Positions 178 to 63,574 of a stretch of DNA of 64,000 nucleotides are shown here, in pieces. Both the position numbers and the translations under genes were made by a program. This stretch comes from a virus (Duplodnaviria; Caudoviricetes). The notes under the pieces are model-generated. The model did not search any database and was not told where the DNA came from. It saw nothing but the letters and a program-made list of their open reading frames with translations. Numbering within the stretch: position 1 is the stretch's first letter; the number at the start of each line of letters is the position of its first letter. Where the stretch lies: IMG/VR virus record IMGVR_UViG_3300014204_000110; one strand, given 5' to 3'.

Positions 178-419
178 AAGTTAGTTTCTATATGTTCATG
201 ACATTGTTTACTTGCATTAAGTAATGACCATTTTAGAAGGTATTCTACAGTTATTTTACTTAGATCTAAGTTACCATCTTCTTTTTTTGCAATGTCTATT
301 GGTGTTTTACTAGATCTAGAAGCATTTTGTAAATCTTCTATAAGTTCAACTAGATTATCAAACATACGCTTATGAAGATCTAGATGACTCTCTTTCCAAA
401 GACCTTGTATAATTGACAT
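174..419 (-). CDS. hypothetical protein
   Basis: 81 aa ORF coupled to neighbours. Confidence 0.6.
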   Translation of the reverse strand: MSIIQGLWKESHLDLHKRMFDNLVELIEDLQNASRSSKTPIDIAKKEDGNLDLSKITVEYLLKWSLLNASKQCHEHIETNL

Positions 420-685
420 TATAACTCCAAATCTTTGTAACTAATTATTTTAACATCTCTTGCTTTAGCAACATTTATTTTAGTCATTCCAGGATCATTT
501 CCAACTATAAGATAATCTGTATAACTTCTAACTGTAGAATTATTTTTTACATAATATGTTTTATTTAAATATATTTCAAATTCTATTCTTGTATATCCTG
601 GAATAGTTCCTGTTACACAAATATTTTTATATTTAAGATCTATTTTTTGTTTTGGTTCTTGATCTCTACGTAAGTTTATACCCAT
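419..685 (-). CDS. stand-alone BRCT domain protein (NAD-ligase C-terminal type)
   Basis: ICVTGTIPGYTR...TDYLIVGNDPGMTKINVAKARDVKIIS matches LigA BRCT; N-terminus MGINLRRD. Confidence 0.8.
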   Translation of the reverse strand: MGINLRRDQEPKQKIDLKYKNICVTGTIPGYTRIEFEIYLNKTYYVKNNSTVRSYTDYLIVGNDPGMTKINVAKARDVKIISYKDLEL

Positions 686-1095
686 TAATTACCACAGCAT
701 GATTTAGGTTGTTTAAGTAATTCTTCAGTTTTAGTTTTATTAGTTTTAAAATTAACTATTAACTTATTTTTAAGTTCTTTAGCTATCTGACAATATTCAA
801 GTTCAAGTCTTAGTAAATTTTTATTTTCTTCAGAAAAGTCTATTGGACAAGATATATTTAATATATAATCTTGATCTTTAAGTAAAACTATTTCTTCAAA
901 TATATTTACGTTTATATTGTTAATTCTACAGAATGAAATTATATGACCGCCGACACATAGACCGAGTGATGATAATAATAACTCTAGAGGTGTATGAAAA
1001 TATAAATTACTTGATGTCTTTCCTCGTATAGGAACTTTTCCTACTGAAGTAATATTAATAATGTTATTTTTATCTCTCAGATTAACTGTTATCAT
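685..1095 (-). CDS. OsmC/Ohr-like protein
   Basis: TPLELLLSSLGLC ... YCQIAKEL two-Cys OsmC pattern; N-terminus MITVNLRD. Confidence 0.65.
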   Translation of the reverse strand: MITVNLRDKNNIINITSVGKVPIRGKTSSNLYFHTPLELLLSSLGLCVGGHIISFCRINNINVNIFEEIVLLKDQDYILNISCPIDFSEENKNLLRLELEYCQIAKELKNKLIVNFKTNKTKTEELLKQPKSCCGN

Positions 1096-1121: not shown

Positions 1122-1343
1122 TTATAAATTATGACTTTTATCGATACTTGGATATAATTCTAACTTTCCGTAATAATTAATACTTAATATATTTCCAGCA
1201 TTATATTCATAAGTTCCATCTTTATTAACTATTGATAAAACTACACGATTATTATCTCTAAATAGTCTTAAGTATATTGGTGGTTTATTTTCTAATTGTA
1301 ATTCAACTATTTCTTTTTCATCATAAGCTCGTAGATTAAGCAT
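1122..1343 (-). CDS. hypothetical protein (MLNLR N-terminus)
   Basis: 73 aa ORF. Confidence 0.55.
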   Translation of the reverse strand: MLNLRAYDEKEIVELQLENKPPIYLRLFRDNNRVVLSIVNKDGTYEYNAGNILSINYYGKLELYPSIDKSHNL

Positions 1344-9351: not shown

Positions 9352-10011
9352 TTAATTAGTAAATAAACCTTTACTAAAACTTTCAAGTTTAATATCATCA
9401 TTTGATGTTGTTGATCGTGTACTCATATATCTTACTGAAGCAGTGTTAACATTATTCCACATATCTGTTGTTCCAGTAGAATCGCTAGAATATTTAAGTG
9501 AACTTCCTCCAGCTAAATTTAAAGTATATTTTACTACTGAAAGATCTTGATTAGCTCCGATGTAATTTATTGTCCATCGTTTTGTATCTAGACGTTCAGA
9601 GATCATTTCTGAAATTTGTTTACTGTTATATTCTACTGAACAGTTTTCTGCTCCATCACTTATGATTAAAATAACGTAAGTTGTAAAATCATTATCAATT
9701 ATGCTATTTTTCATTTCATTAAGTAATTTAGCAACACCGTCGTACATTGCTGTTGTACCATTAGGATTATAATCTTTATCTGTAAAATCAACGATGTTAT
9801 TTATAGGTGTAGCATTAAACACTGTAGAAATATTATCTCTACTTGAAAATTTAACAAGGGTAAGTGTGGTTTCAATGTCTGAAAACTTTTTATATTCTTG
9901 TATGTGTTCATTAAGTCCAGAAACCGTTTCTCGTCTGGAACTAGCCATACTACCACTTTCGTCTAGTGCAATGCCTATATGTACTATTTTTTTATCAGCT
10001 CTAAGATTCAT
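9352..10011 (-). CDS. vWA domain protein
   Basis: LDESGSM, PNGTTAMYD, IISDGAENCS, YIGAN; N-terminus MNLRAD. Confidence 0.88.
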   Translation of the reverse strand: MNLRADKKIVHIGIALDESGSMASSRRETVSGLNEHIQEYKKFSDIETTLTLVKFSSRDNISTVFNATPINNIVDFTDKDYNPNGTTAMYDGVAKLLNEMKNSIIDNDFTTYVILIISDGAENCSVEYNSKQISEMISERLDTKRWTINYIGANQDLSVVKYTLNLAGGSSLKYSSDSTGTTDMWNNVNTASVRYMSTRSTTSNDDIKLESFSKGLFTN

Positions 10012-10542
10012 TGTATGTCCTCCAATGTGTTTGTTAATTTATTTGTCATTTCTACTAATTTATTAGAATCATCTATTCTAAGATTAATAGTTTTTTTAAT
10101 GTTCATATATTTTTGAATATCATTTACTTGTTCTTTAATATCTTTAAGTACTTGTTGATTTGTTTGAACATATGAACTTATACAATTTCTAATTTGAGTA
10201 AGATATTCTATATTTATTTCTAATTGTTCAAATTTTCTTATTTTATTAGTTATTTCTTTTGAATAATTAACAGTATTATCTATATTATAACATCTATGAT
10301 CTAGCTCAATTATAACATCTATGATCTAGCTCATTAACATCTATTTTTAAACTTTGTATAGATTCTTGTATTTCTTTGTATTGTTCTTGATTCATATCTA
10401 GTTCTTTTAGTAATAAACTTTCTATGATTTCTGTACATATTGGACAAAATTCATCAGAATTATGTCTATCAAGGATACCTCTAAGTATTGTTTTATCATT
10501 TAGTGATATTCCTGGATGTGATGTTATAATATCTTTATTCAT
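10008..10542 (-). pseudogene. coiled-coil protein split by a 25-bp tandem duplication
   Basis: Removing one repeat copy joins ORF 10306-10542 in frame to an open stretch ending at TGA 10008-10010. Confidence 0.65.
10284..10333. repeat. 25-bp perfect tandem duplication
   Basis: attataacatctatgatctagctca x2. Confidence 0.95.
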
Positions 10543-14814: not shown

Positions 14815-15258
14815 TTATATATCATTTGAAGTTAATAATCCACTACATAAGAGATCTACTAGACGCGAATTTAAGGCATCACGTTCTAATTTATAACAAT
14901 CATCACATAATGTTTGTATCCAATCAAGATCTTTTCTTAATTTCCCAGATTTTCCATCATTTTCACATAGTGTATAAGATAATTGTTCAAATTGATTAAG
15001 TTGCCAGAATATTTTATTAAATATATCTTCCCATTCTTCTTTGGATAAATTTTCTTTTAATTTATCATAATTTAGATTTATTCTTAATCCACCTAATTTT
15101 TCTTTTATTTGAAATATTTCGATAAGTTTTTTTGTATCAATATCTGATAAGAAAGATAAAGTTAGATATATTAAACTATTCCATCCAGAACCGCATTCAA
15201 ATTTAAAATTATCTAGAAACATATATTTGTATTTATCTATAATTTCTTTTTCTGTCAT
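14815..15258 (-). CDS. conserved phage hypothetical protein
   Basis: FECGSGW, QIKEKLGGLR, W..TLCDDC. Confidence 0.7.
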   Translation of the reverse strand: MTEKEIIDKYKYMFLDNFKFECGSGWNSLIYLTLSFLSDIDTKKLIEIFQIKEKLGGLRINLNYDKLKENLSKEEWEDIFNKIFWQLNQFEQLSYTLCENDGKSGKLRKDLDWIQTLCDDCYKLERDALNSRLVDLLCSGLLTSNDI

Positions 15259-15575
15259 TAATCTTTCCTTAAATTTATATTTTTATATTTTGATATTATA
15301 TGATTATTTAAAAAAACTATATGAGCTTCTCCTCTATTCCAATCTCTATAAGATTCACTTATTAGTTTATATGAATATTTTCCAGTTAAAGATTTAAGTA
15401 TATTATCATCTATTGATTCTAAATTTTTTATAGTTGCTGTTCTTTCAGAAAATCTATTTCCATCAAGTAATGATATTAATTTTAATTCAAAAAAATTTAT
15501 CTGAGATAACATATAATAATTATAAAATGTATCTATTTCAAAAATATTTCCTATTTTATACATATTATTTTCCAA
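15258..15575 (-). CDS. hypothetical protein
   Basis: 105 aa ORF ending in NINLRKD. Confidence 0.55.
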   Translation of the reverse strand: MENNMYKIGNIFEIDTFYNYYMLSQINFFELKLISLLDGNRFSERTATIKNLESIDDNILKSLTGKYSYKLISESYRDWNRGEAHIVFLNNHIISKYKNINLRKD

Positions 15576-16243: not shown

Positions 16244-16666
16244 CTAAATATTATATTCTGAGATTGCTGGAATTTTGGTATTTTTCATAAATGACATAGT
16301 AACTCCATTTGATACTGGTCTTGTAGATTGAACTTTTGCTTCAATAAATGTACATACTTTTACTGGACTTGAAAGTTGAAACATTTCAGCACTTTTTGCT
16401 ATTACACTATCAAATGAAGAACAAATAGATCTTGGAAGATATTCTTTAATTTCAAATGGTTTGAAATATTTAATATCAATTGTATTAAGAGCATCTGTTT
16501 TACGTTTAGATGAGTCTCTACCAGTTTTACGACAGAAGTTATCATTTAAATGTGTAATTGAAAATCCTACCAGAAGTCTGTCATCTGGAGTTTTTTTGAT
16601 ACAATAACTATGAGCCAATGTATCTTTATTATCTTCTCTTACATGAAAATACAGTTCATCTTTCAT
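16244..16666 (-). CDS. hypothetical protein
   Basis: 140 aa ORF, D.FCRKTGR motif, AAGGAG RBS. Confidence 0.65.
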   Translation of the reverse strand: MKDELYFHVREDNKDTLAHSYCIKKTPDDRLLVGFSITHLNDNFCRKTGRDSSKRKTDALNTIDIKYFKPFEIKEYLPRSICSSFDSVIAKSAEMFQLSSPVKVCTFIEAKVQSTRPVSNGVTMSFMKNTKIPAISEYNI

Positions 16667-17076
16667 TTTGTCTCCTTTTGAGTATTAGTTAATATGTTTA
16701 AATCTTGTGTACTTGCTGTTATAATACTAGAATTTATTAACTGCTTTAATCTAGCATGATTATATGTTCTATCTATTGCTTGTTTACTATCTTCTTTTTT
16801 AATTATATTATTATCAATAATAACATAGTTATATTTAATTATGTATATATTTCTAATTGTATCATTTATTTTAAATCCTAATGGAAGAATACAAGCTATA
16901 GCTATAAATAAACTTGCTACTCCAGATACTAACCATTTTGTAAGTTTATAATAATATAATTCTTCACCTTCAAGTTGTTTAGCTACTTTAAGTTTTTCAA
17001 GTTCAAGTATTTTATCTTCTGAAAGGTATTTATATGCATTTTTATCTTCTTTATTATGTCTAAGATTTAAGTTCAT
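16663..17076 (-). CDS. single-TM membrane protein (MNLNLR N-terminus)
   Basis: Hydrophobic WLVSGVASLFIAIACILPLGF. Confidence 0.6.
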   Translation of the reverse strand: MNLNLRHNKEDKNAYKYLSEDKILELEKLKVAKQLEGEELYYYKLTKWLVSGVASLFIAIACILPLGFKINDTIRNIYIIKYNYVIIDNNIIKKEDSKQAIDRTYNHARLKQLINSSIITASTQDLNILTNTQKETK

Positions 17077-35877: not shown

Positions 35878-36462
35878 TTAGTTATCAAATACTTGTTCAG
35901 CGGTCATTCCAGATACCTTACTTTCTGAAACATCTGCAACAACAGTAGTTCTTTTTCGTTTATCTGAAGCATCTGCAGCTCTTGCTAATGCTCCAATTGC
36001 ACCTGCAACTTTACTATTTGTACTATCATATGCTGGTTTAGAATCTAGTTCTTCACCAGCTATATTTAAAGATTCTATAACAGCGTTACAAATACCTTTA
36101 TTAGTAATGTTTTTAAATTGTTTTGTTCCATTCTTTTCATTAAGAAAAGAATTAATTGAAATAAATTTGTTTTTATTTGGTTGCTTAATTTCTCTTGATT
36201 GTATTGTAAGAGGACCCATTATATGACTTAGATCAGCTGTTGCAAAATCTCCATCTATTTGTACATTATCTGCTCTGAATATAATTGTTTCTCCAAAACC
36301 AATAATTCTTACATCATTACCATTCTTATTTGTGCTGAGATCTCCAATCCAACTTCTTAATTGGCTTGCTACAACATATTTATGGTCATCTGTAAGAAGT
36401 CCAGTAACTAAACTAATGTTACCAAGACCATCGATCATTTCAACACCTTTAACTTTGAACAT
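35878..36462 (-). CDS. hypothetical protein
   Basis: ORF; probable start MFKVKG after GGAGG. Confidence 0.65.
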   Translation of the reverse strand: MFKVKGVEMIDGLGNISLVTGLLTDDHKYVVASQLRSWIGDLSTNKNGNDVRIIGFGETIIFRADNVQIDGDFATADLSHIMGPLTIQSREIKQPNKNKFISINSFLNEKNGTKQFKNITNKGICNAVIESLNIAGEELDSKPAYDSTNSKVAGAIGALARAADASDKRKRTTVVADVSESKVSGMTAEQVFDN

Positions 36463-36497
36463 AAAAACCTCCAAATAAAGAGTAATATAAAATGCTG

Positions 36498-36935
36498 TTA
36501 CAAACAATTTATAACAGCTGGAATTTTATCTGTAATCGAAAGAATTAAAGGACAATAACTTTCTCTACTTTTTGTATAACCACACATAAGTATCTCTGGA
36601 ACGTTTTTACATCCAACAACCAGAAGACTATGTGAGTTATTATTTTTAATAAATGCTACATACCCTTTAGATATATCAAACATATCTTTAAGATAAACTG
36701 TATTTTTGTTACTTACAAATCCAATGATTTTAGTAAGTAGTAATTTATCTTTAAATGACAGTAAAATGTCTTTTATACATGAAGGATCTTTTTGTAACAT
36801 AGACCAATATCTAGATATGTGGTCGTTTTGTCGATCAAATGTTATTGTATTTTTCCAAACGTTCTCACCATTCGGACATATATTTATTATTTTTTCTTTA
36901 CTACAAATTAACTTAGTTATTCCTCTGCGCGCCAT
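36498..36935 (-). CDS. hypothetical protein
   Basis: 145 aa ORF. Confidence 0.55.
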   Translation of the reverse strand: MARRGITKLICSKEKIINICPNGENVWKNTITFDRQNDHISRYWSMLQKDPSCIKDILLSFKDKLLLTKIIGFVSNKNTVYLKDMFDISKGYVAFIKNNNSHSLLVVGCKNVPEILMCGYTKSRESYCPLILSITDKIPAVINCL

Positions 36936-38821
36936 ACACCAATTCTCCCGTTAAGATGTGACTGCTCTCCTGTATGACTATCAAACTCACTAAGATCACT
37001 GTAATCATCACTATCAATGTCTGTTTCTATCATACTATCAAAATTTGATATTCCAGATCTTATATTTTCAACTGCTTCTTCATTATAATGATGTTTGTTA
37101 TTTAATACATTGCAACTTGAAAGTATTGTATAGAATGTTTCATAGTTACTTTCTCTTGTTCTTGATACTTTAGCTGAAGCTTCCCACCAATTACATAATG
37201 GAACTTTAATTACGTTAAATTCTTCCCAAGATTGCCAAGTATCCCAATATAAACTATTGTCTAGAATATTACTTGCAAATAATTTTGCTGATGTAAGAAT
37301 TCCATCACCAAGATTAAAATCGTTTCCTCCAAGTTCAAGAATATCATCATAATTATTCATAAGTACACTATCTACTGGTAATGTACTTATATTATTAAGC
37401 CAATCATAAAACATTCTTGGATTGTCTTCAATGAAACTATCTTTATAATGTTCCCAACAATTGAGTATTTCACCAATACTCCAACGTTGTCCAACTTTGA
37501 GAATGTCACAAAATTGATTCCATCCTCCACAGATGTCTAGTTGATTAAAATCTTTATCTTGTTGTATAATCTTTTTAATATTAATCATTGTTGGATAAAG
37601 ATTATTAATTGATTCTGCTTTATCTGAATCAAGATTATATAAAATACTATCTATATATTCTTTCTTGTATTCAGCTGGAAGATCAATTAAACTTTTATCA
37701 TTAAATAACTTAATGTTATAATTTTGTTTTTGTTTAATAAGATCTACTAGAAATTGTGGAAATATTGCATTTTTATTTAAGATACCTTCTTTTAATGCAC
37801 GTTTAACGAGCATTATTACCCACCAATAACGTTCATTGGTATTATAATATTCTTTTTTAGTTATTTTAGTTAGCTGTGGATGATTAAGAATCCAATTAAG
37901 TATATTTTCTTTGTATAATTTAATCATTTCTTTTGGTAATATTTTTGTAACGTTATTTTCAATCCAAGATACTTTACCAATGTAATCATAAAGTTCAAAG
38001 AAATATTTAAAATTAATATATCCTTTATATATATTTTTTAAATTATCAATAGAGGTTTTACCCATAAAGTTTCTTTTTACTTCATGAGCTATAAAATTAT
38101 TACTCATTAATGTCCAGAGATTTATAAATTCTCCATTTTTTACTGCTATCATAGCATCTGACATTATAGATGCTATTTGTTTATTTTTAAAGAAAGTACT
38201 TGCAAAATTAATTATTTCATCATTTGATGCAAAACCAATGTATAATTCTTTTTTAATTGGTTTTTCTTGTCTATAAGTATAATTCTTCCAATTTGGAAGA
38301 CCAATATAACTTTTCATACAAGCATGTATTGTCATGTTTGTATTTTTATCAAACATTCCATAAATACCACCTTGACAGTATTCTACTTGAGATATACCAT
38401 GAAACTTTTCTATATTCCATGAAGTGCCTATAAGAAATGGATTGTATTCTCCGAATACTTCTCCTACTTGATCTATGTTATTAATGTCATTATTTTTATT
38501 TGGAATGTTAAATTCTGAAGTTGAATATAGAGGATGTATATCTGCAGGAAAACTTCTGAAATCAAACTGTTTTCCAGATTGATGTTGAGTTAAGTTTTCA
38601 ATTGTTGTAGACATTTCACCAATTTTAATTGGATCAAGTCTATTAGTATGTTGATAATTTATATCACCATTACTATCAAATTCTGGGTATAAATTGTATA
38701 CATCTTTTCTTTTCTTACCACAACCAAGGTCTATTTCATTACCAAATTCATCTGTTTTTATTATTCTAAATATACATTTTAACTTACCTAGCCTACTGTT
38801 TTTACATTCAAGTACGTTCAT
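36917..38821 (-). CDS. large hypothetical protein
   Basis: 634 aa ORF with AGGAG RBS; no recognisable motif. Confidence 0.75.
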   Translation of the reverse strand: MNVLECKNSRLGKLKCIFRIIKTDEFGNEIDLGCGKKRKDVYNLYPEFDSNGDINYQHTNRLDPIKIGEMSTTIENLTQHQSGKQFDFRSFPADIHPLYSTSEFNIPNKNNDINNIDQVGEVFGEYNPFLIGTSWNIEKFHGISQVEYCQGGIYGMFDKNTNMTIHACMKSYIGLPNWKNYTYRQEKPIKKELYIGFASNDEIINFASTFFKNKQIASIMSDAMIAVKNGEFINLWTLMSNNFIAHEVKRNFMGKTSIDNLKNIYKGYINFKYFFELYDYIGKVSWIENNVTKILPKEMIKLYKENILNWILNHPQLTKITKKEYYNTNERYWWVIMLVKRALKEGILNKNAIFPQFLVDLIKQKQNYNIKLFNDKSLIDLPAEYKKEYIDSILYNLDSDKAESINNLYPTMINIKKIIQQDKDFNQLDICGGWNQFCDILKVGQRWSIGEILNCWEHYKDSFIEDNPRMFYDWLNNISTLPVDSVLMNNYDDILELGGNDFNLGDGILTSAKLFASNILDNSLYWDTWQSWEEFNVIKVPLCNWWEASAKVSRTRESNYETFYTILSSCNVLNNKHHYNEEAVENIRSGISNFDSMIETDIDSDDYSDLSEFDSHTGEQSHLNGRIGVWRAEE

Positions 38822-50968: not shown

Positions 50969-52207
50969 TTACTTAAGCATTGCTTTCACTTGATTGCAAT
51001 ACTCATTAACATTACTTATCCATAAGTTCCACATCTGAAAGTATACAATTCCTCCTCTAAGTTTAGTTATATTACGGTTATGCACCATAAAGCCTTCATC
51101 ATAAGCCAACTGTACTTGATCAGCATAGAACTTCAAACATTTATCCTTTCCAATTATACGATGTTGATGAGAGTTACAGAACTTACCTCTTATGTAATCA
51201 GTAACCAATACAAAACCTTCTTTCATTGTTGGTGTGGGTTCGTATACGTCGATTATACGATGTTTACGTAATGCAGGATTAACTGGTTGAGGTTTATACT
51301 TACTGTTCTCTATGTACTCTAGAGTGTGTTTAGGATGATAATCTATTACATCGTGATTCTTTCTAAATGTTGCATGAGACATCATAATACTTTGAGCATA
51401 TCTCATCTTACCAGAGTTCTTAACACCTCCAGTAAGTTCACAGATATAATCACATTCGTCTTCAGTAATAAATCCTTCATGAAGCTTTTCAATAGCAATA
51501 TCATAAGCTTTAGTAGGATCTTTACCAATATAGAATATCATACTCTTCCAGAACTTAAGATGAGCTTTATCCTGATGAGTACCAGACTCATTAGCTACAA
51601 GATCATAATCAGATTCAGTTAATTGTCTAGCATCATCATTATAGTTATTACAAACATTCTCATCATACTCATCATCAGTATCTTTGTATAACTCTCTGAT
51701 AGTATCTTTGTTACTCCATATCCATTTAGCCAGAGATCTATCAAGTTTAAGTTTCTTAAGAGCTTTGATATCAAGCATACCTTTATGATCAGTATACCAT
51801 TCAAGATTGAATCTTGTAACAGTATCCTTTTCATATTTATCATTAGAACATACAACTTCTTCGAATATATCCCATTGTTTAGGATGATAGTCTTTATTAC
51901 CATAAATATTATCACCAGGACCATCTACAGCAAAGTCATCACGTATATCAGGAGCGGTGCTATCTGCTAAGATACCAGTAGGACTTATCCATAATCCATC
52001 CTCACAGATATCTAGACTATTTCCTTCTTTATCAAACCTTTGAGGACCATACTCATCAGAGTTACTGTGATACATAACGTTCTCCTTTGATTTATGTGTA
52101 TCAGTAAAAGTTACTTCATGATTTGAAAGATCATACTCAGATAACTTACCATTAGCTTTAGCAATAAGACGATTAATGATCATCTGATTAGAAATAGTAC
52201 GATTCAT
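50969..52207 (-). CDS. large acidic hypothetical protein
   Basis: AAGGAG RBS before MNRTIS; ~412 aa. Confidence 0.7.
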   Translation of the reverse strand: MNRTISNQMIINRLIAKANGKLSEYDLSNHEVTFTDTHKSKENVMYHSNSDEYGPQRFDKEGNSLDICEDGLWISPTGILADSTAPDIRDDFAVDGPGDNIYGNKDYHPKQWDIFEEVVCSNDKYEKDTVTRFNLEWYTDHKGMLDIKALKKLKLDRSLAKWIWSNKDTIRELYKDTDDEYDENVCNNYNDDARQLTESDYDLVANESGTHQDKAHLKFWKSMIFYIGKDPTKAYDIAIEKLHEGFITEDECDYICELTGGVKNSGKMRYAQSIMMSHATFRKNHDVIDYHPKHTLEYIENSKYKPQPVNPALRKHRIIDVYEPTPTMKEGFVLVTDYIRGKFCNSHQHRIIGKDKCLKFYADQVQLAYDEGFMVHNRNITKLRGGIVYFQMWNLWISNVNEYCNQVKAMLK

Positions 52208-52359
52208 GATAAACTCCTTTGGTAAAAGTTTAGTTAATTGATACTTCAATTACTTCTTCATCATTAATAACATCAAAGACACGTTCAAACTCAGATACAT
52301 CTAGAAACTGATCATCATAATCTTGAATAGACATGATATTACTCCTTTGATTAAGTTAA

Positions 52360-52569
52360 TTAAAATTCAAATTTACCAGACATTATTTCTTCAAGTAGAT
52401 CAGCACATTCTTTACCAATAACTGGTTCTTTAGGATCTTTATGTACAGGACTTTCTTGTACTGTGCATAGATCATAGTTACAGTTCTTACAGATAAAAGA
52501 CTGTGGGTTATCTACTGTAGCAGGCATACCACAACCATCACATACAACTAGATACTTTGACTTAGACAT
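52360..52569 (-). CDS. small zinc-ribbon protein
   Basis: CDGC...CKNC, AAGGAG RBS. Confidence 0.65.
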   Translation of the reverse strand: MSKSKYLVVCDGCGMPATVDNPQSFICKNCNYDLCTVQESPVHKDPKEPVIGKECADLLEEIMSGKFEF

Positions 52570-53490
52570 GACATACTCCTTTGTTTATGGTTATTAATCA
52601 ATGAAACTTAAATTAGCGATTACTACTATAGCTATACATACTACAGCTATTACTAACCTCAATGTACCAGCATGTACACTAAGCTTACTACATCTAGATA
52701 CAAGATTAGATTGTATATACATATCTAATCCTTTCTATTGTTGATTGTTATTAATAAGTACTAGTTAACAATACCACTATCACTAGCAAGCGTGCCTTGT
52801 ACATCAAAGTATGATGCAATAAGCATATACGTTGCTACTGCTTTACTACGATTAAGACAACTAATACGATCACTAAGCTTATGATCTTTTTCAACAAAGA
52901 CCATACTATCAATTAATGTAACAGTAAACATAAAACCTCCTAGAAAAGTGTGTAAGTTATTGTTTTGTATAAAGTTACCCAGTGAGCTCTTATCTTCTGT
53001 AAAGTAATAATATAATACTAATAACACTCTAGGTACTATCGAAAAACATCCCTAATATCATAATCTCAATTCTCAAATAATTTTTTACACTAAACTGTAT
53101 ATTAAGCATTAACTATAATATTTAAATCCTAAAATAATTTTTCATCTATTTAAGCAATATCTAAATCCTCCAAAAAATTTTATCTGAAACCTCTTGATAG
53201 AAATTATACCTGATCTGATATAATCTTAGCTTTAAACAGTACTTTTATACCCTTTCTGGTATAAAAACGTAAAATCGAATTTTCAAAAAAAATATATCTG
53301 AATCGACCTCGCAATGGTCCTTTTCTATAACCCTAAACATATCAATAAGTTATAAGATATCTTTGTCTGAAAAGTATATATTATTTCAGACAAGAAGTGC
53401 ATAGTATTGCCTATTTATATGTATTTTGTGTTAAAACTGTTATAAAGCTACTAAAAGTGTTATATACTGCACCTTATGTGTTAAAACAAT

Positions 53491-53519
53491 TTGACATCCT
53501 AGATGTAAAGAAGTATATT
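53491..53519 (+). promoter_or_regulatory. sigma70-type promoter
   Basis: TTGACA-17 nt-TATATT followed by AGGAGG and ATG 53537. Confidence 0.8.
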
Positions 53520-53536
53520 ACTAATAGGAGGTAAGT

Positions 53537-53851
53537 ATGAAATATTGTAGTAATTGTAAGTATCTTTCTAAGTATATTCGTGATGAAATTATTGATTATA
53601 GATATATAGATGGAAGTATAGTAGAGTCTGGAAATAAAGTATGTCTATGTGATCCTAAAAGAGAAGATTATAATAATTGGGAATATGAGTGTGTAACTAA
53701 GGTTTTAACTGTTTATGATCCTAGAAAGCTTAATGTTAAGAATGATTGCCAGTGTTATCGAGAGAGATGGATATATAGAATTATAGCGTTTCTTAGAGGA
53801 TGTAAGTATTATCATGTTAATGGTGGATTAAAACATGAACGAGTTAAATAA
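53537..53851 (+). CDS. Cys-rich hypothetical protein
   Basis: First gene of plus-strand arm; CSNC..C..N..NDCQCY. Confidence 0.65.
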   Translation: MKYCSNCKYLSKYIRDEIIDYRYIDGSIVESGNKVCLCDPKREDYNNWEYECVTKVLTVYDPRKLNVKNDCQCYRERWIYRIIAFLRGCKYYHVNGGLKHERVK

Positions 53852-54043
53852 GTTAGTTATACTTATATTTGCTTTGTATGTGATTGGTGATACTATCAGG
53901 ATAATTGATCATAAGGATCGCTTTGTAATATTAAATGTGTTTAATACAGATACTGATAGTTGTTATGTTATGCTTGGTAATCTAGAGCATAAGTTAATAA
54001 GATATGAGCGTTGTTATAAACTTAGAAAGACTTTAGATAAGTA

Positions 54044-54072
54044 TTGACTTTAACTTTGAAATATTGTATATT
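54044..54072 (+). promoter_or_regulatory. sigma70-type promoter
   Basis: TTGACT-17 nt-TATATT upstream of Hsp20. Confidence 0.7.
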
Positions 54073-54127
54073 ACTTATGTTACTGATCGAATGACAGTAA
54101 CTTTTTTAATCTATCTAAGGAGGATTT

Positions 54128-54535
54128 ATGGACACACAACTATGGGACATCTTCGATGTCTTCTTCAAAGATGCACTGGACACTTCCAGTACCTACACAA
54201 CTCTTACGAACAGCAAACTACATTATCCAATTGATGTTAAGGAGACAACCTCTGGAATTCAATTTGATGTAGCTATTGTTGGGGCTGAGAAAAAAGATGT
54301 AATTATCGAAACCGAAAACGATATATTACGAATAATTTATCCTAATAATGAAAATAAAGACAGCACTGAAAAGTATCTTTATAAGGGGATTACACGTAAG
54401 TCTTTCAATTTTAATTGGAAGCTTGGTGGCAAGTTTGACGTCGCTCAGACAGTGGCAGCTATGGATAAGGGATTACTTACGATTAAGATTCCTTACACTA
54501 AGAACGCTACTAAGAAACGTGTTGAAATAGTTTAA
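54128..54535 (+). CDS. small heat-shock protein (Hsp20/alpha-crystallin)
   Basis: YPIDVKET, YLYKGITRKSF, A.MDKGLLTIKIP. Confidence 0.92.
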   Translation: MDTQLWDIFDVFFKDALDTSSTYTTLTNSKLHYPIDVKETTSGIQFDVAIVGAEKKDVIIETENDILRIIYPNNENKDSTEKYLYKGITRKSFNFNWKLGGKFDVAQTVAAMDKGLLTIKIPYTKNATKKRVEIV

Positions 54536-54539
54536 ACAT

Positions 54540-54560
54540 TTGGGGAGATATTCTCCCCAA
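54540..54560. terminator. hairpin/terminator after Hsp20
   Basis: ttggggaga-tat-tctccccaa. Confidence 0.65.
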
Positions 54561-54767
54561 TTATATTTATATGGGTAAAATTAAAAAAATAATGTCTGAA
54601 GAATTTAAGAGACGTAATTTTCCAGATAGTATTAATAATTATTTTATAGCAAATTGTCCATATAGTGATCGAGATTGTGATGTATTTTGTAATGAAGATG
54701 AATGTGAAGATTGTTTTCATGAATTTGTAACATTTGATCAACTTCATGTAAGTCTAGGAATTAAATC

Positions 54768-55082
54768 TTGATACATCTAAGAGATCCATATATAGAGAGT
54801 ATTGTAGAACTTAATTCATTTAAATTATTTTATGAAAGTAATTTTATATGTGACTGTAATGCAATTGAAATAACATCAAATACATTAAAAGGATTTTTTA
54901 CTACTAATTTTAATCTTGATATTTATCAAGATAAAACATATACGATTCTTATAAATTATAATAATACAATATATAATTTAAACTATGTTAAACTAACATC
55001 CAGACATCGTTATGTTGATAATTTTAATATACCAATTAGTCTAGATACTAAATACGAGTTTAAGTATGAACATATCTCTTAG
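54768..55082 (+). CDS. tagged protein 1 (MIHLRDPY)
   Basis: TTG start overlapping upstream stop. Confidence 0.6.
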   Translation: MIHLRDPYIESIVELNSFKLFYESNFICDCNAIEITSNTLKGFFTTNFNLDIYQDKTYTILINYNNTIYNLNYVKLTSRHRYVDNFNIPISLDTKYEFKYEHIS

Positions 55083-55458
55083 AGATCGAGCAGATCCAAT
55101 ATATCCAGAAAATAGTTTTAATAGTATCTGGTATGCAACAAGAATGCTTATAACTAGTGGATCTATGTTTAAGTTAGAATATAATCTTCCTAGACGTTGG
55201 GGTAAGACTCATCTATGTGGAAAACTCATGGAAGAATTTGAAAATGTAATATATATTGCTAGTAATGATAATATGTGTAAATATTTCTGTTCTACATATG
55301 GATATATAACTAGAACTTTTAGTGCTAATTATATACTTGATTGTTTAAGAGGTCGAATAATAAATTATATTTTATTTGATGAAGTATCTTCTGTTCAAGT
55401 AAATAACGTATTATCTTATGTACATCCTAAAGGTTATCTTGCAGTGAGATCATTATGA
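55066..55458 (+). CDS. tagged protein 2 (MNISLRDR), small P-loop ATPase-like domain
   Basis: PRRWGKT Walker A and ILFDE Walker B, terminase-ATPase-like but only 130 aa. Confidence 0.65.
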   Translation: MNISLRDRADPIYPENSFNSIWYATRMLITSGSMFKLEYNLPRRWGKTHLCGKLMEEFENVIYIASNDNMCKYFCSTYGYITRTFSANYILDCLRGRIINYILFDEVSSVQVNNVLSYVHPKGYLAVRSL

Positions 55459-55688
55459 TTCACTTAAGAGATCCATACATAAATGATTTTCCTACTCAAA
55501 GTCCGTCTAGTTCAGATTCAAGTAGTTCAAGTAGTTCAGAAAGTTTTAGTATTAGTGATAGTGCAAGTATTTCAATGAGTGCTAGTCCAAGTATAAGTAA
55601 TGAAAGAAATTATGAACATACACCTAAGAGATCGATACTTTCAAGAATATCCAAAAGATTGGTATCGATTATATCTTTTACTAAGTAA
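55455..55688 (+). CDS. tagged protein 3 (MIHLRDPY), Ser-rich
   Basis: SPSSSDSSSSSSSESFSISDSASISMSASPSIS. Confidence 0.55.
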   Translation: MIHLRDPYINDFPTQSPSSSDSSSSSSSESFSISDSASISMSASPSISNERNYEHTPKRSILSRISKRLVSIISFTK

Positions 55689-56022
55689 AAATATAAATGA
55701 AGATAGATTTTTTACCATAAATTTATCTAGACATAAACATTTTGAAACCGTTACTTTAGGTTTAAATTTATTAAATGATTTTGAACATCTTTTAATGATT
55801 GTTAAAAACGCTGGTACTGAAATAATGCTTAGAAAAAATAGTAATTTAAATAATATAAATCAATATAATTTATATTCTGGAGTAGAACTTAAAAATTGTG
55901 GATGTGATGTACATCTAAAATTAAAATATAAATATATATTTATGGATAACTTAGATGATGAACTTATAAAATACTATTCTAATCTTGGACTTAGTTATAT
56001 TAGTATAAAGAACAACTTATGA
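55612..56022 (+). CDS. tagged protein 4 (MNIHLRDRY)
   Basis: Start at 55612 matches the shared motif. Confidence 0.6.
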   Translation: MNIHLRDRYFQEYPKDWYRLYLLLSKNINEDRFFTINLSRHKHFETVTLGLNLLNDFEHLLMIVKNAGTEIMLRKNSNLNNINQYNLYSGVELKNCGCDVHLKLKYKYIFMDNLDDELIKYYSNLGLSYISIKNNL

Positions 56023-56228
56023 ACATAAATTTAAGAGATCGATACATTGCTGAGACACTTACAATCAAAGATATTTCTAATATGGTTGAGTGGTTGATGA
56101 AACAACCATCACAAGAATATATAATTCCAGTAGATAGTTATTATGATAAATTAATAGATGATTATTTTAATGAGCGAATTAAAAAATTAAAAACTAGGAA
56201 ACTATATGACAATAAATCTAAGAGATAG
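56019..56228 (+). CDS. tagged protein 5 (MNINLRDRY)
   Basis: ATGA coupling. Confidence 0.6.
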   Translation: MNINLRDRYIAETLTIKDISNMVEWLMKQPSQEYIIPVDSYYDKLIDDYFNERIKKLKTRKLYDNKSKR

Positions 56229-56415
56229 ATACGTAGAAGAACCAAAAGTATGGCCAGGTAAATTTGAATATACTGATACATTAGACTTTGATAATCACAT
56301 CATTCAACAATGGGTGCAAAATGCTAGAAGAGCACTATCTGCTGAAGTTAGACGAACTGTATTAGAACAAATACCGCGTTATAATCAAGGTGGAATAATT
56401 GAACCTAAATCTTAA
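56206..56415 (+). CDS. tagged protein 6 (MTINLRDRY)
   Basis: AGGA RBS. Confidence 0.6.
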   Translation: MTINLRDRYVEEPKVWPGKFEYTDTLDFDNHIIQQWVQNARRALSAEVRRTVLEQIPRYNQGGIIEPKS

Positions 56416-56701
56416 AAATAAATATCCAGATATCTTTAATGCTGTCTATGATAGTGTTACTGATTTTACAGACTTACCTGATGAAGTTATCTCTAAGATA
56501 GCTTATCGAGCAGGTACTGTAGCTTGTGAAGCTCACGAGCGAGAACTAACCAAGGAGAAATCAATGTCAGATGATCTTAAAGATCTTGTAACGTCTACAG
56601 ATGTTCCAAGTATTTCAAAACAAGAGATGCGAAAGACTCACGCTAATCAACATCAGCAAGCAAAGAAAATAACAGGAAAAGCTAAGAAAACAAAGAAATA
56701 A
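56399..56701 (+). CDS. tagged protein 7 (MNLNLKNKY); possible internal start MSDDLK
   Basis: TTG start; internal AAGGAG before ATG 56563. Confidence 0.5.
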   Translation: MNLNLKNKYPDIFNAVYDSVTDFTDLPDEVISKIAYRAGTVACEAHERELTKEKSMSDDLKDLVTSTDVPSISKQEMRKTHANQHQQAKKITGKAKKTKK

Positions 56702-56702
56702 C

Positions 56703-56731
56703 TTGATATCTTACTACGGTTGTAGTATATT
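56703..56731 (+). promoter_or_regulatory. sigma70-type promoter
   Basis: TTGATA-17 nt-TATATT upstream of RNR. Confidence 0.65.
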
Positions 56732-56778
56732 ATAGACATCACAATTGATGTCTATTTTTGTCTTTGAGGGAAAACAAA

Positions 56779-58665
56779 ATGAGTGTTACTTATCCAAATA
56801 TTGCTAGTGAATTTGTTGCTTTACGATCTTATTGTAGATGGTTACCAGATCAAGAAAGAAGAGAAACTTGGGAAGAAGTTGTAAATCGAGTTGTTAATTT
56901 TTTAAAAACAGAAACTCGTCATGCTGATAGAATTCCTAATAAAGTATGGACTTCTATTGAAGAAGGAATGTTAACTTTTAATGTAATGCCAAGTATGAGA
57001 CTTGCAGCTACTGCTGGGCCTGCTGCAAAAAAAGATAATATTTGTCTTTTTAATTGTTCATATTTACCAATTGATAGTATTAAATCATTTAGTGAATTAT
57101 TATATATATTAATGTGTGGTACAGGAGCAGGATTTAGTGTAGAAAAAGAAAACATTGATAAACTTTCTATTATTAAACATCCAAATTCTCAAAGAAGAGA
57201 TGATTATATAATTGAAGATTCTCGTGAAGGTTGGGCTAAAGCTTTTCAGTTTGGTCTTGAAACATGGTTTAATGGAGAAGATGTTCATTTTGATTTTTCA
57301 AAACTCAGACCATATGGTGCTTCATTAAAAACAATGGGTGGAAGATCTAGTGGTCCTGATCCATTAAAAGAACTTCTTGAATTTACAAAAGATATTATTT
57401 TTAACGCAAAAGGAAGAAAGTTAACTTCTTTAGAATGTCATGATATTTGTTGTAAAGTTGCAGAAGTTGTAGTTGTTGGTGGTACACGAAGATCAGCAAT
57501 GATTTCATTCAGTGATCTCGATGATCAATTAATGTGTCATGCAAAAGAATTTCCAATTCCACCACATCGATTTATGGCAAATAATTCTGCTGTATATAAA
57601 GAAAAACCTGATACTATTACTTTTCTTAAAGAATGGAGTTCATTAGCTGAATCTGGAAGTGGAGAAAGAGGAATTATAAATGTTAGTAATCTTGATGCTA
57701 TATGTAAAGATAGAAAATTTACAAAAGATATAAGATTCAATCCTTGCTCAGAGATTCTTCTTAGACCATACGAATGTTGTAACTTATCAGAAGCAGTTAT
57801 TAGAAGTGATGATGATATTGGAGATCTTGTTGAAAAAGTAACTACTGCTACATGGTTAGGTGTTATTCAAGGAACATTTACACATTTTCCTTTTTTAAGA
57901 CCTGAATGGAAAAAGAATTGTGAAGAAGAAAGATTAATTGGTGTAAGTCTTACTGGTCAAATGGATAATCCAGAAATTCTTTCAGAACAAGTGCTTAAAC
58001 AATTAAAAAAAGTAGTAATAAAAGTTGCAAAACATGCTTCTTCTATTCTAGAAGTGAATACACCAAAAGCATATACTTGTGTTAAACCATCTGGAACTGT
58101 TTCACAAGTTGTAGATAGTGCTTCTGGTTGTCATCCTAGATACAGTAAATTTTATATAAGAAGATATAGGATTTCTAGTTCTGATCCATTATTTCATCTT
58201 ATGAGAGATCAAGGAATTTCATATAAACCTGAAGTTGGTCAAACAGAAGATAATGCTACAACAATGGTTGTTGAATTTCCAATTAAAGCACCAGATAAAG
58301 CTATTACAATTAAAGATTGGTCATCATCAGATCAACTTAATTGGTATCTTAAAGTTCAAAAAAATTGGAGTACTCATAATGTTAGCAATACAGTTTACGT
58401 AAAAAAAGATGAATGGTTAAAAATTGGATCTTGGGTTTATGATCATTTTGCTGAAATAGTTGGTGTAAGTTTTCTTCCAATTGAAGATCATAAATATGAA
58501 TTAGCACCATATGAAGAAATTACTGAAGATAAATACAATGAATTATTAAAATCTTTTCCTAAATTAGATTTTTCAGTATTAGGAGAATATGAAAAACTCG
58601 TTGGTGATAAAACTGAAGCAGCTAAACAAATGGCTTGTTCTTCAGGATCTTGCGAAATAACATAA
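56779..58665 (+). CDS. nrdJ: class II (AdoCbl-dependent) ribonucleotide reductase
   Basis: RRETWEE, PSMR, FNCSY, GGRSSGP, VVGGTRRSA, NPCSE, CNL, CVKPSGT, C-terminal CSSGSCE; no small subunit adjacent. Confidence 0.9.
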   Translation: MSVTYPNIASEFVALRSYCRWLPDQERRETWEEVVNRVVNFLKTETRHADRIPNKVWTSIEEGMLTFNVMPSMRLAATAGPAAKKDNICLFNCSYLPIDSIKSFSELLYILMCGTGAGFSVEKENIDKLSIIKHPNSQRRDDYIIEDSREGWAKAFQFGLETWFNGEDVHFDFSKLRPYGASLKTMGGRSSGPDPLKELLEFTKDIIFNAKGRKLTSLECHDICCKVAEVVVVGGTRRSAMISFSDLDDQLMCHAKEFPIPPHRFMANNSAVYKEKPDTITFLKEWSSLAESGSGERGIINVSNLDAICKDRKFTKDIRFNPCSEILLRPYECCNLSEAVIRSDDDIGDLVEKVTTATWLGVIQGTFTHFPFLRPEWKKNCEEERLIGVSLTGQMDNPEILSEQVLKQLKKVVIKVAKHASSILEVNTPKAYTCVKPSGTVSQVVDSASGCHPRYSKFYIRRYRISSSDPLFHLMRDQGISYKPEVGQTEDNATTMVVEFPIKAPDKAITIKDWSSSDQLNWYLKVQKNWSTHNVSNTVYVKKDEWLKIGSWVYDHFAEIVGVSFLPIEDHKYELAPYEEITEDKYNELLKSFPKLDFSVLGEYEKLVGDKTEAAKQMACSSGSCEIT

Positions 58666-59612
58666 ATGAAGCAAATAAAAACATATCTAGAATATAACTT
58701 AGATAGTAAAAACATAATTATAATAAGTAATACTTATAAAGGAAGTCCTAAGATGTATTATAAATATGATATCTTGATAGGATCTAAAGAAATTATAACT
58801 AAATATAAAAGTGATCTTGTTCCAGAACATCTGCTTAAAACTGGATGGAAACCGAAGGTGGTTTATTTATGAAAGCAAAATTAATTATTTTAAAACACGA
58901 ACTAAATAATTGGTCAGAAAGATATAAAAAAGAAGCTGAAAGATGTCTTAATAATTGTAGTTTAGAATGTGTTGGATATAAAATAAGACAAGAAACTGTT
59001 GATGTAATTGTTGAAATGTTAAACAAAATATTAAATGAAGAGGAAAATAATGAGTAAAGAAGATAAATTAATAGAAGTGTTAAATAATATGATTAAATTA
59101 GTAGAACCAATTTATTACAAAGATTTTAATAAGAAAATAAAAGCAATTAATAATGAAGATCTTATCAAATATGAAGAAAAAGAATCTGTTGTTGGAGTTA
59201 CAAATATAAACAATAATGATTATGCAATTTCAACTTTAAGTATAATTGCTACAATAACTGATATTTTAATTGATAAACGTTTAGCATTTAATGTTGAAGA
59301 TACTGGAGTTATAAGTGGAGTTAAATTTTATGAACCTTTGGTGTAAATTAGGATTTCATGATTATGAAACTATAAAATCTTTATCAATAAGAGATATAGA
59401 AAACGATATAGCTATTAAAAGAGGAATTACTCCAATTCTTGACTATTATACAACTGGAATAACTTCTTATTTTAGTCAAAAAATATGTTTAAATTGTTGT
59501 AAGTATATTGATGAAATTACACCAGAAATTAAAAGACAAGAAAAAGTAGTAGATAAATCAAATATTCGAGAAAACAAATTAAAAGAAATACTTTCTAAAA
59601 AAGGAATTAATA

Positions 59613-60134
59613 ATGAGTGAAATTAAGTTACAAATAGTTAAAATGTTTGATGATGTTAAGTTACCTAGTAAGCAGAATCCTACTGATAGTGGATTTGATC
59701 TTTACGCTTATAGTTTTAAAAAGTACTATCAGAATCATGGTAGTAACTATGAACGACTTTTTGAAGATGATAAAGTAACTCCTTTTATACGTGATGGGGA
59801 ACTTGAACTGGCTAGTCTTGATAGAGTTCTTATAGGTACTGGTCTTAAGATGACAGTTGGACCTGGATATGAACTTCAAGTACGTGCTAGAAGTGGACTT
59901 GCTCTTAAACAAGGATTATCATTAGTAAACGGAATTGGCACAATTGACTATTCTTATCGTGACGAATGTTGTGTTATACTTATTAATCTTTCTAGAAAGA
60001 ATCAAGTGATTAAACTAGGAGATAGAATAGCACAAATTGTTCCTATGGCGGTTGCTTTGCCTGAAATACAGGTTGTTCAAACTTTAGATGGTGTTGATCG
60101 TGGTGGTGGTTTTGGGCATACGAATAACAATTAG
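59613..60134 (+). CDS. dut: trimeric dUTPase
   Basis: SGFDL, RSGLA, GTIDYSYR, GDRIAQ, RGGGFGHT. Confidence 0.95.
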   Translation: MSEIKLQIVKMFDDVKLPSKQNPTDSGFDLYAYSFKKYYQNHGSNYERLFEDDKVTPFIRDGELELASLDRVLIGTGLKMTVGPGYELQVRARSGLALKQGLSLVNGIGTIDYSYRDECCVILINLSRKNQVIKLGDRIAQIVPMAVALPEIQVVQTLDGVDRGGGFGHTNNN

Positions 60135-60251
60135 TCTATACTATAGGAGATAAATTATGTTTAATATGTTCATACGAACACTTATTAGGGCGATAACTTA
60201 TAATATAGTTAATGTTCTATTTAGAAAATTAATAAGATTAAAGAGGTTAAA

Positions 60252-60701
60252 ATGAATGTTGAAATAACTACAGATGGAACTCTGCAAAACACAATACTTA
60301 AAGTTGATGGTAAGGATATTACCAAAAATAACAAAGTAGTAAGTATAAGTGCTTATGCTTCTGCTCCTTTTAAAGGACAGGTAAGTGGTGACATTTATAA
60401 AGGTCACGTTGGTGTAAGTTATGAAATAATGGATGATAAAGGCACAATTGAACGACTTTCTATAGGAAGTTCTGAAACAGACTACGTAAAAGGCATCGGT
60501 CAGAAGATTAAACAGAATGATCAGGTATTGCAGTATCTAGGTCAGAATATTCCTGCAGAGCTAGACGTTATTGTAGATAAAATTGTAAAACATTGTGAAG
60601 ATAATAAGATAGCATGTCCCGCTAAAGATGTTCTTGTTACGAGAACAAAAGAATCATTGATGGATAAAGTCATTGATCTTGGAATTAAATTGGAGAATTA
60701 A
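60252..60701 (+). CDS. hypothetical protein
   Basis: 149 aa with GAGG RBS. Confidence 0.65.
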   Translation: MNVEITTDGTLQNTILKVDGKDITKNNKVVSISAYASAPFKGQVSGDIYKGHVGVSYEIMDDKGTIERLSIGSSETDYVKGIGQKIKQNDQVLQYLGQNIPAELDVIVDKIVKHCEDNKIACPAKDVLVTRTKESLMDKVIDLGIKLEN

Positions 60702-62908: not shown

Positions 62909-63574
62909 ATGTCAGAAATTAATTTAAGAAACGTTTCTAATCAAACAGAACTTGCTATTCTAGGACAAAATAATCCAGAACTTGCTAGTTTATTACAGGT
63001 ATATCCTCCAGAAATGGCAACTCTTTTAATTAATAATAAAGAAAAACTTGCAAGTATATCTAAACAGATGGAAAATTTTACAACAGTTACTTGTATTAAT
63101 ACAATGATAATGAAGTGTTCTCAAAATTGTGTATATAATAATGTTTGTATTTTCGTTAAGAATGATATACGTCCCGATGGGTTTCCCTGCCCTATCGAGA
63201 AAAAAGTTATATTAGATATGGAATTTGACATCGTAAGAAGTCTTGAAATTGATAAAAGTGATCCTATAGAAATGGAAATGCTTTGGGATTTAATCGATGC
63301 TAAACTTCTAGATATGCGAAGTAGTGGAGCACTTAAAGATGGAAGACTTACTCAGATAGTTGAACAAAAAGTTGGTCAAGCTATAGTAAGTCGTGAAGAA
63401 CTTTCTCCAAATATCGAAGCTAAGATGGAACTTAAAAGACTTAAACATAATATTATTGATAGCTTCGTAGCGACTCGTAGAGCCAAGAAAAAATATGGTA
63501 TGAGTAGTGATCAGAGTACTCTTGAAAAGATGATCAGAGAGGCTGCAATGAATGTTGAAGACCAATTGGAATGA
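62909..63574 (+). CDS. hypothetical protein (MSEINLRN N-terminus), Cys cluster plus helical region
   Basis: C...C....C.....G.PCP.E; small-terminase-like position unproven. Confidence 0.65.
   Translation: MSEINLRNVSNQTELAILGQNNPELASLLQVYPPEMATLLINNKEKLASISKQMENFTTVTCINTMIMKCSQNCVYNNVCIFVKNDIRPDGFPCPIEKKVILDMEFDIVRSLEIDKSDPIEMEMLWDLIDAKLLDMRSSGALKDGRLTQIVEQKVGQAIVSREELSPNIEAKMELKRLKHNIIDSFVATRRAKKKYGMSSDQSTLEKMIREAAMNVEDQLE

Follow-up and report, generated by a model that had tools for sequence, protein, structure and literature searches.

An end-placed Leu-Arg-Asp peptide on unrelated proteins of a large uncultured tailed phage, with a dense array of tagged genes upstream of a ribonucleotide reductase gene

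A 64,000-nt stretch of viral DNA (IMGVR_UViG_3300014204_000110; the whole of this stretch is referred to here as the window), taken from an ENA metagenome contig of 229,018 bp, carries seven consecutive open reading frames (ORFs) on the plus strand at positions 54768-56701, the products of which all begin with one short peptide, M-x-I-x-L-R-D-[R/P]-[Y/A], and have no detectable similarity to each other beyond it. The source is a large, AT-rich, uncultured tailed phage of 229 kb; the window has a G+C content of ~27% and its genes are mostly orphans. The peptide, termed the tag below, conforms to a motif that is found at the ends of proteins throughout this phage lineage and of which the array forms the densest cluster. 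The consensus of this motif is phi-[N/H/S]-L-R-(x)-[D/E/N], and the residues after it are polar, often acidic or rich in proline. The explanation that we consider probable is that of a peptide signal, in which small accessory genes of a single operon carry a lineage-wide end-tag that would serve as a portable docking motif for one cytoplasmic partner.

A preliminary description of the window had pointed out the seven frames with a common N-terminal peptide, and all of them are present; what had to be corrected is that the tag also occurs on genes outside the seven. A six-frame search of the 64 kb with the pattern [LIVM][RK][DN][RPK][YAF] returned nine matches, seven of which are the array ORF starts, within 1.7 kb, and two of which are not at ORF starts. 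Of the DNA word YTAAGAGATMSATA the window has exactly five copies, every one of them inside the array. The lack of similarity past the tag was also borne out: once residues 1-12 had been cut off, not one of the 21 possible pairs of array proteins scored above shuffles (best z = 1.4, ORF2 against ORF4). ORF2, described earlier as a mini P-loop ATPase, matches Pfam AAA_14 (E = 4e-4) and has an ESM Atlas model with a pTM of 0.79, in which residues 17-130 match RecA-like helicase domain 1; the domain has a Walker A (GKT) and a Walker B (FDE) motif and its nearest look-alikes are small viral P-loop protein clusters. For ORF5, a word-index search of 5.8 billion proteins found no match except ORF5 itself.

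If the seven ORFs were tandem paralogues, still recognisable only at their N-termini and without a common signal function, the excess of DNA identity at their 5' ends over the need of the peptide (described below) would follow readily, as would the equal length of ORF5 and ORF6 (both 69 amino acids, aa) and the weak alignment of ORF2 with ORF4 if their tags are left on (28% identity across 71 aa; E = 0.004, the database being small). Such an origin is nevertheless improbable, given that no similar pair is left without the first 12 residues, that ORF2 is an alpha/beta P-loop domain whereas the low-confidence model of ORF1 is all-beta, that the tag heads unrelated Pfam domains elsewhere in the genome, and that its retention in orthologues goes back to well before the array arose. 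The single-sequence AlphaFold2 model of ORF4 (pLDDT 33) was unusable for a fold comparison of ORF2 with ORF4.

The closest relative found (L001/G001; RNR, its ribonucleotide reductase, 87% identical) is a 219-kb IMG/VR contig rated 95% complete, and comparisons with G001 refer to the whole of that genome. A genome-wide search of N-termini had been proposed as a check of the tag, and the tag was found at the head of many unrelated proteins in the window, in G001 and in further relatives. There are 17 NLR tripeptides in window ORFs of at least 40 aa, nine of them no more than seven residues from the start codon and one at a C-terminus. When all tripeptides were counted without bias in the first ten residues and compared with ORF interiors, NLR and LRD ranked first; NLR was observed eight times in this region against 0.2 expected in the window (p = 6e-11), and 13 times against 1.2 expected in the window and G001 together (p = 8e-10). 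The distance of the tag from Met1 ranges from 0 to 8 residues.

The window carriers outside the array are listed in Table 1; on one of them, a predicted single-pass membrane protein, the tag sits on an N-terminal tail of ~45 residues. In G001 the tag stands at the N-terminus of about ten proteins and at the C-terminus of several. The carriers there include a PD-(D/E)XK nuclease (MAINLRKS) and a Cdc48/VAT-like AAA+ ATPase (gene 51171-52982), which ends ...KLNLRTDDVNI and also has an H-L-R start, and the start of a 59-aa ORF, MGIILRDPPDPIEPEE, resembles that of ORF2, MNISLRDRADPIYPEN. On the minus strand at window 10008-10106, a 32-aa tagged mini-ORF (MNIKKTINLRIDD...) overlaps the start of the vWA gene, and the equivalent position in a relative (L217:9696-10004) holds a 102-aa ORF which is also tagged (MNLRTDKPEY); the mini-ORF may be a decayed or shortened carrier. 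Past the end of the window (L221:15613-16854), a 413-aa protein encoded just upstream of the portal gene ends ...ILNLRSRLNT, and this C-terminal copy is too distant from the next start codon to be its ribosome-binding site (RBS).

Selection is acting on the peptide and not on the DNA, because the codons of the tag vary as those of the genome do, because vWA orthologues keep MNLR and because the tag is a disordered overhang. A comparison of synonymous with non-synonymous variation, which had likewise been suggested, showed that the residues are kept while the codons vary as in the genome: Leu is encoded by TTA, CTA, CTT, CTC, CTG or TTG and Arg by AGA, CGT, CGA, CGG, CGC or AGG, with AGA at 61% in tags and 60% in the genome and TTA at 52% and 42%, respectively, in a survey of candidate N-terminal copies (31 of them non-array candidates) that includes some doubtful ORFs. 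Among 19 homologues of the vWA protein within the lineage (41-100% identity), all 18 that are full length start with M-N-L-R, the nineteenth being truncated; the residue which follows varies freely (A, Q, R, K, N, E or T) and the Leu codon in five genomes is CTT, CTA, TTA, CTT and CTC. Homologues below 40% identity, Bacteroidales proteins included, are without the tag and start directly at the domain. The family of the 221-aa protein shows the same pattern of a kept tag, with the variants NIDLRD, INFR and NVR, and orthologues of the OsmC-like and BRCT-like proteins also retain it. In the AlphaFold2 model of the vWA protein (pLDDT 89) residues 1-7 form a coil ahead of strand beta-1, with a pLDDT below 50 for residues 1-3; this coil, together with the fold of ORF2 which starts at residue 17, leads us to regard the tag as a disordered overhang on folded domains.

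Within the array there is an additional resemblance in DNA. The cassettes are 68-84% identical over their first 22-38 nt, a stretch that begins 8-11 nt ahead of the ATG, and the likeness is lost sharply after about codon 9. This identity is above what the peptide needs, thus implying recent common descent or an exchange of 5' modules, and it may act in a secondary role as a recombination hook within the array. The second alternative in the preliminary description went further, proposing that the tag DNA is a recombination site at cassette junctions which builds an integron-like array, and this was not upheld as the reason for the conservation. Contigs of related strains, in which parts of ORF2/3, ORF4 and ORF7 are retained with 85-93% identity, do cease to resemble the window at 55601 and 56202, both of them cassette borders, although these are single short contigs and the evidence is a weak hint. 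The dispersed copies, however, have only the peptide in common and use varied codons, orthologues change the codons and keep the residues, and there are neither intergenic spacers nor attC-like inverted repeats at the junctions. An exact scan of viral contigs for the DNA pattern gave 43 single matches, about what a rough estimate predicts by chance, and no second array. We therefore give very little weight to a DNA site as the explanation of the tag.

The array occupies a plastic slot. Synteny between the window and L001 extends from the RNR gene onward and is found again upstream of the slot, yet the part of the window at 52.6-56.47 kb is without an equivalent in L001 (7.3-9.55 kb). Cassette order in related phages had been named as a point to check, and the slot upstream of RNR carries different tagged cargo in the relative: a tagged ORF of 194 aa (MGILLRDK), another of 103 aa (MSILLRDRPY) and one untagged ORF, then the conserved small basic gene and RNR. 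In a scan of 160 RNR-anchored loci from viral and metagenome collections, tagged ORFs were found upstream of RNR only in this 87% relative; the RNR relatives at or below 63% identity had no tagged array upstream, or too little upstream DNA to tell.

The array looks like one operon, comprising an untagged Cys-rich ORF and then the seven tagged ORFs, because terminator-like hairpins stand at both ends and the starts and stops overlap; neighbouring ORFs share 4 nt (ATGA/TTGA) or 17, 23 or 77 nt and there are no spacers. A gene caller for metagenomes predicted all of the tagged ORFs except the poly-Ser one (ORF3, 55455-55688), whose status is uncertain for that reason. The frame of ORF7 exists as first described, but its C-terminal half, from an ATG at 56564 with a strong AAGGAG RBS, corresponds to a separate 49-aa gene in the closest relative; ORF7 as a whole is 42% identical to the L001 DNA, in an alignment that spans an in-frame stop. 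Positions 56564-56701 are thus a probable separate small basic gene, the start of which is possibly an eighth, degenerate x-L-K-D copy. It was also observed that the DNA which encodes a tag contains, in a different frame, the stop codon of the gene before it (CT-TAG-A, GA-TAG-A and CT-TAA-A, at window 55066-55092, 56206-56232 and 56399-56415), with the ATGA starts acting likewise in the +1 frame, and therefore a tagged cassette tends to end any ORF that precedes it.

Table 1. Array, flanking genes and dispersed tagged ORFs in the 64,000-nt window
Feature	Position	Strand	Start or tag	Length (aa)	Remarks
BRCT-like carrier	419..685	-	MGINLRRD...	88	Weak BRCT match
OsmC-like carrier	685..1095	-	MITVNLRD...	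136	Weak OsmC match; orthologues MTSVHLRD (G001), MITVNLRD (L218)
Carrier	1122..1343	-	MLNLRAYD...	73	
vWA carrier	9352..10011	-	MNLRAD...	219	Tag is residues 1-6, ahead of strand beta-1
C-terminal copy	15258..15575	-	...KNINLRKD (C-terminus)		Leu-Arg-Lys codons (TTAAGGAAAG) double as RBS of the next gene
Membrane carrier	16663..17076	-	MNLNLRH...	137	One predicted transmembrane segment (about residues 47-70)
Hsp20 / alpha-crystallin gene	54128..54535	+			Flanks the array; PF00011, E = 4e-12; absent from G001
Terminator-like hairpin + T-run	54540..54560	+			After the Hsp20 gene; upstream border of the array transcription unit
First ORF of unit	54571..54771	+	Untagged	66	Cys-rich; TGA stop overlaps TTG start of ORF1
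ORF1	54768..55082	+	MIHLRDPY	104	TTG start; orphan; low-confidence small beta-barrel model
ORF2	55066..55458	+	MNISLRDRA (MNISLRDRADPIYPEN...)	130	Tag and linker are residues 1-16, then RecA-like P-loop domain
ORF3	55455..55688	+	MIHLRDPY	77	Poly-Ser; 77-nt overlap with ORF4
ORF4	55612..56022	+	MNIHLRDRY	136	In-frame ATG 4 codons upstream at 55600; orphan
ORF5	56019..56228	+	MNINLRDRY	69	Orphan
ORF6	56206..56415	+	MTINLRDRY	69	Orphan
ORF7	56399..56701	+	MNLNLKNKY	100	TTG start; degenerate tag, weakest copy
Small basic gene (probable)	56564..56701	+	MSDDLKDLV...		Inside ORF7 frame; strong AAGGAG RBS; stand-alone 49-aa ORF in relative
Terminator-like hairpin	56732..56755	+			After the array, ahead of the RNR gene
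RNR, class II (B12-dependent)	56779..58665	+			Conserved anchor of the slot
Carrier	62909..63574	+	MSEINLRN...	221	Relatives start MNLRD, MNLRS, MNNINLRA

In the mechanism that we propose, the array ORFs are small accessory genes in one tightly coupled operon, placed in a hyperplastic slot between Hsp20 and RNR, and their tag is a local, slightly extended form (M-x-I-x-L-R-D-[R/P]-Y) of the lineage-wide peptide. The phages attach this peptide to many unrelated proteins as a short disordered overhang, mostly right after Met1 and sometimes at the C-terminus, and one common cytoplasmic partner would read it as a portable short linear motif. Its action might be comparable to that of the peptides that serve AAA+ unfoldase/protease systems as tethers or degrons, or to that of motifs which bind a hub and may stand at either end of a protein. 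On this view the array would be a site for plugging fast-changing small effectors into the tag pathway, with the DNA identity at the cassette starts probably aiding the exchange of cassettes. The first alternative in the preliminary description, a short linear peptide signal on diverse cargo, is supported in its general form, given the retention at the peptide level, the disordered overhang and the unrelated carriers across the genome and lineage. A more ambitious version is put forward only tentatively: a single reader, encoded by phage or host, may recognise phi-N-L-R-x-D at either end of at least about two dozen phage proteins as a virus-wide code for sorting or timed turnover, and the slot upstream of RNR may be a fast-evolving dock which takes up new effectors via recombination in the 27-38 nt of tag-coding DNA.

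The part of that first alternative which was not supported is the analogy with T4 capsid targeting. On this explanation the tag would be a capsid- or virion-targeting leader like the T4 capsid-targeting sequence (CTS), loading small anti-defence proteins into the prohead, where a protease would trim them, perhaps after L-R-D. The T-even internal-protein locus, in which diverse defence-countering proteins have only the CTS at their N-termini in common (PMC3012670), is its best precedent; the array similarly lies in a hyperplastic locus with other cargo in the relative, L-R-D resembles the L/I-x-E cleavage site of T4, and one of the two ClpP-family proteins of G001 could be a prohead protease. 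However, the T4 prohead protease (gp21, Peptidase_S77; PF03420) and gp23 (PF07068) families have no match in the 95%-complete G001, the distance of the tag from Met1 varies with no conserved cleavage context after the tag, and the array sits among nucleotide-metabolism genes, outside the head module. A membrane-anchored protein is among the carriers, as are a nuclease, a vWA protein and an AAA+ ATPase, and the tag is in some cases at the C-terminus; this argues against capsid loading as a general role and favours a cytoplasmic partner. We thus regard capsid targeting as unlikely.

Several points also tell against the docking motif itself. No binding partner was found, and G001 encodes no ClpX zinc-binding domain (PF06689) and neither the Cdc48_N nor the Clp_N family (PF02359, PF02861), while its Cdc48-like AAA+ protein is itself tagged. 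The members of the array swap Asn for His or Ser and add R/P-Y, and could therefore represent a sub-type with a distinct partner. The proteins of the array and the other carriers are, moreover, predicted from their genes. Lastly, several C-terminal copies coincide with the in-frame Shine-Dalgarno (SD) sequence TAAGGAG of the next gene, so that part of the C-terminal signal may have a cause at the level of nucleic acid; the Asn which precedes these copies is not accounted for by TAAGGAG, and the AAA+ tail has a separate RBS downstream.

Extended to every copy, this coincidence would make the tag a translation element, an SD-like or downstream-box RNA at gene borders that reads as L-R-D by chance, and the array tags do read TAAGAGA. 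This is very improbable, as AGG, the codon which would pair best with the SD partner, was found in only one of the 31 non-array candidate starts (some of them doubtful ORFs) against 35% for CGN, as upstream SD strength is equal in tagged and untagged genes (Mann-Whitney p = 0.96), as the motif has no start codon behind it at the distance of an SD sequence, and as the Asn before Leu is again left over. Two related ideas were dropped on the same grounds: that the true starts lie downstream of the tag, there being no start codon at a suitable spacing, and that the tag compensates for a missing RBS, SD strength being the same in both sets of genes.

As for what might read the tag, G001 encodes two ClpP-family proteins and the Cdc48-like AAA+ protein; a GroES-like protein is encoded close to one of the ClpP-family genes (G001 113094-115401), the second being elsewhere (36359-36988). 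The small heat-shock protein (sHSP) next to the array was also considered. Every tag copy contains the phi-x-phi core, as M/I/L/V-x-L, of the I-x-I/V motif that docks in the beta4-beta8 groove of alpha-crystallin, and like that motif it lies on a flexible tail; unlike it, the tag always has Leu in the third position and then an invariant Arg, neither of which the sHSP motif requires. A phage-encoded sHSP does not accompany the tag wherever it is used, since Hsp20 adjoins the array but PF00011 has no match in the tag-bearing G001, for which a cognate sHSP could come from the host. A complex prediction for an Hsp20 dimer with ORF5 gave a score of 0.00 and was not counted as evidence.

The recognisable genes of the window include those for a DNA ligase, a TROVE-type RNA-binding protein, the class II RNR, a dUTPase and Hsp20, and just downstream of it lie the portal gene and a gene for an intein-bearing 1114-aa protein. 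Megablast of the array region against 50,697 deposited phage records gave no match. An 8.5-kb stretch (window 52000-60500) is present with zero differences in two metagenomes, one of landfill from 2018 and one of groundwater from 2022, either or both of which may be the sample of origin, and no RNA run is listed as containing it. In both of these runs there is a second contig with a joint at 55509-55545 that goes back 37 inside the poly-Ser coding repeat of ORF3, so that the serine-rich tract varies in length within the population.

Intervening sequences were seen in several genes of the phage and its relatives. The RNR of L001 (9866-12685, compared with window 56779-58665) has an insert of ~310 residues with intein hallmarks, a Cys at its start and His-Asn then Cys at its end, which the window gene is without. 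The 1114-aa protein by the portal (L221:10847-14191, equivalent to about window 65.5-68.8 kb, past the window end) contains two Hint/intein modules, one with a LAGLIDADG endonuclease, and from its sequence (N-terminal ...SRWGRR, then an intein) is probably the large terminase. In G001 (175681-177417, minus strand) the tail tube gene is split into exons of 62 aa and 148 aa by an insert encoding a 352-aa endonuclease-like ORF, which looks like a group I-type intron with its homing enzyme.

In a further explanation the array is a set of decoys, the cargo being pieces of tube, terminase and capsid proteins that the phage itself encodes. The Walker A context of ORF2 is terminase-like (RRWGKT, compared with SRWGRR in the 1114-aa protein), ORF2 has a weak PHROG terminase match (E = 0.007) and there are tube-like folds among the neighbours of the low-confidence ORF1 model, although PilZ-type barrels match that model equally well. 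No array protein, however, is significantly similar to the phage's own packaging/portal region (Smith-Waterman scores equal to those of shuffles) in a comparison which reached window position ~75.5 kb, the capsid and tube genes of the phage lying beyond. Nor was significant similarity seen to the whole G001 genome, including the sheath and the split tube gene, and a search of longer proteins gave no parent for ORF2 at E <= 10. Decoys are accordingly a very improbable account of the array.

A few phage systems, that of the T4 internal proteins among them, are known to use a common address peptide at protein ends, as are bacterial compartments and proteases, and in a full-text search of the literature no paper was found that describes an LRD/NLR end-tag. 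If the docking motif is real, a tag of four to six residues at either end of unrelated non-structural proteins, used across a whole jumbo-phage lineage, would point to an undescribed means of routing, assembling or removing in a timed manner the virus's own proteins. It would also allow accessory genes with common regulation or localisation to be found by sequence in uncultured phages, likely effectors of host takeover or anti-defence, and could be developed as a portable engineering tag, while the array illustrates how such effectors may be swapped as modules.

Among known modular arrays, integron gene cassettes and the PeSL-flanked modules of T4-type hyperplastic regions resemble the array in having co-oriented, promoterless small cassettes, a repeated junction sequence and other content in relatives. 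They differ in that the repeat here lies inside coding sequence and is selected as a peptide, so that the junction is not one conserved in DNA rather than peptide, and in that there are no attC sites and no intergenic promoter-stem-loops; no integrase is found among the annotated neighbours Hsp20 and RNR, two small unnamed ORFs (53537-54047) having been left unscanned and no dedicated integrase search made. The nearest precedent for the array itself is the T-even internal-protein locus, for in the array too a short N-terminal leader is the sole part shared by diverse small proteins from a variable locus. The differences are that no T4-type protease or capsid family was found in G001, and that the LRD tag is shorter, is also C-terminal, occurs across the genome on a membrane protein and on enzymes, and is followed by no conserved cleavage context.

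The cargo-loading peptides of encapsulins and the encapsulation peptides of bacterial microcompartments sort unrelated cargo to one receptor from either the N- or the C-terminal end, and the tag is like them in being a terminal peptide on unrelated cargo; those peptides differ, however, in their greater length or helical form and in having a shell as their established partner, and the carriers here include a membrane protein. Clamp-binding motifs such as the PIP box and the beta-clamp motif are hub-binding short linear motifs, and the likeness lies in a single hub that recognises a short motif on a range of unrelated proteins, be it at the N- or the C-terminus, though the tag has no consensus of the Q-x-x-L-x-x-F-F type and replication proteins do not predominate among its carriers. 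ClpX tethers and degrons, which include the C-terminal XB tail of SspB and the N- and C-terminal ClpX recognition motifs, differ from the tag in sequence, and G001 encodes no ClpX N-domain; binding of the tag to an unfoldase would be hypothetical. They share with it a Leu-Arg motif of four to six residues, placed on a disordered end at either terminus and portable between proteins; the tag fits this type in position and disorder, and its function would by extension be similar. For the pattern seen across the genome, the nearest precedents are such tethers and degrons of AAA+ proteases, together with the motifs that bind a hub from either terminus.

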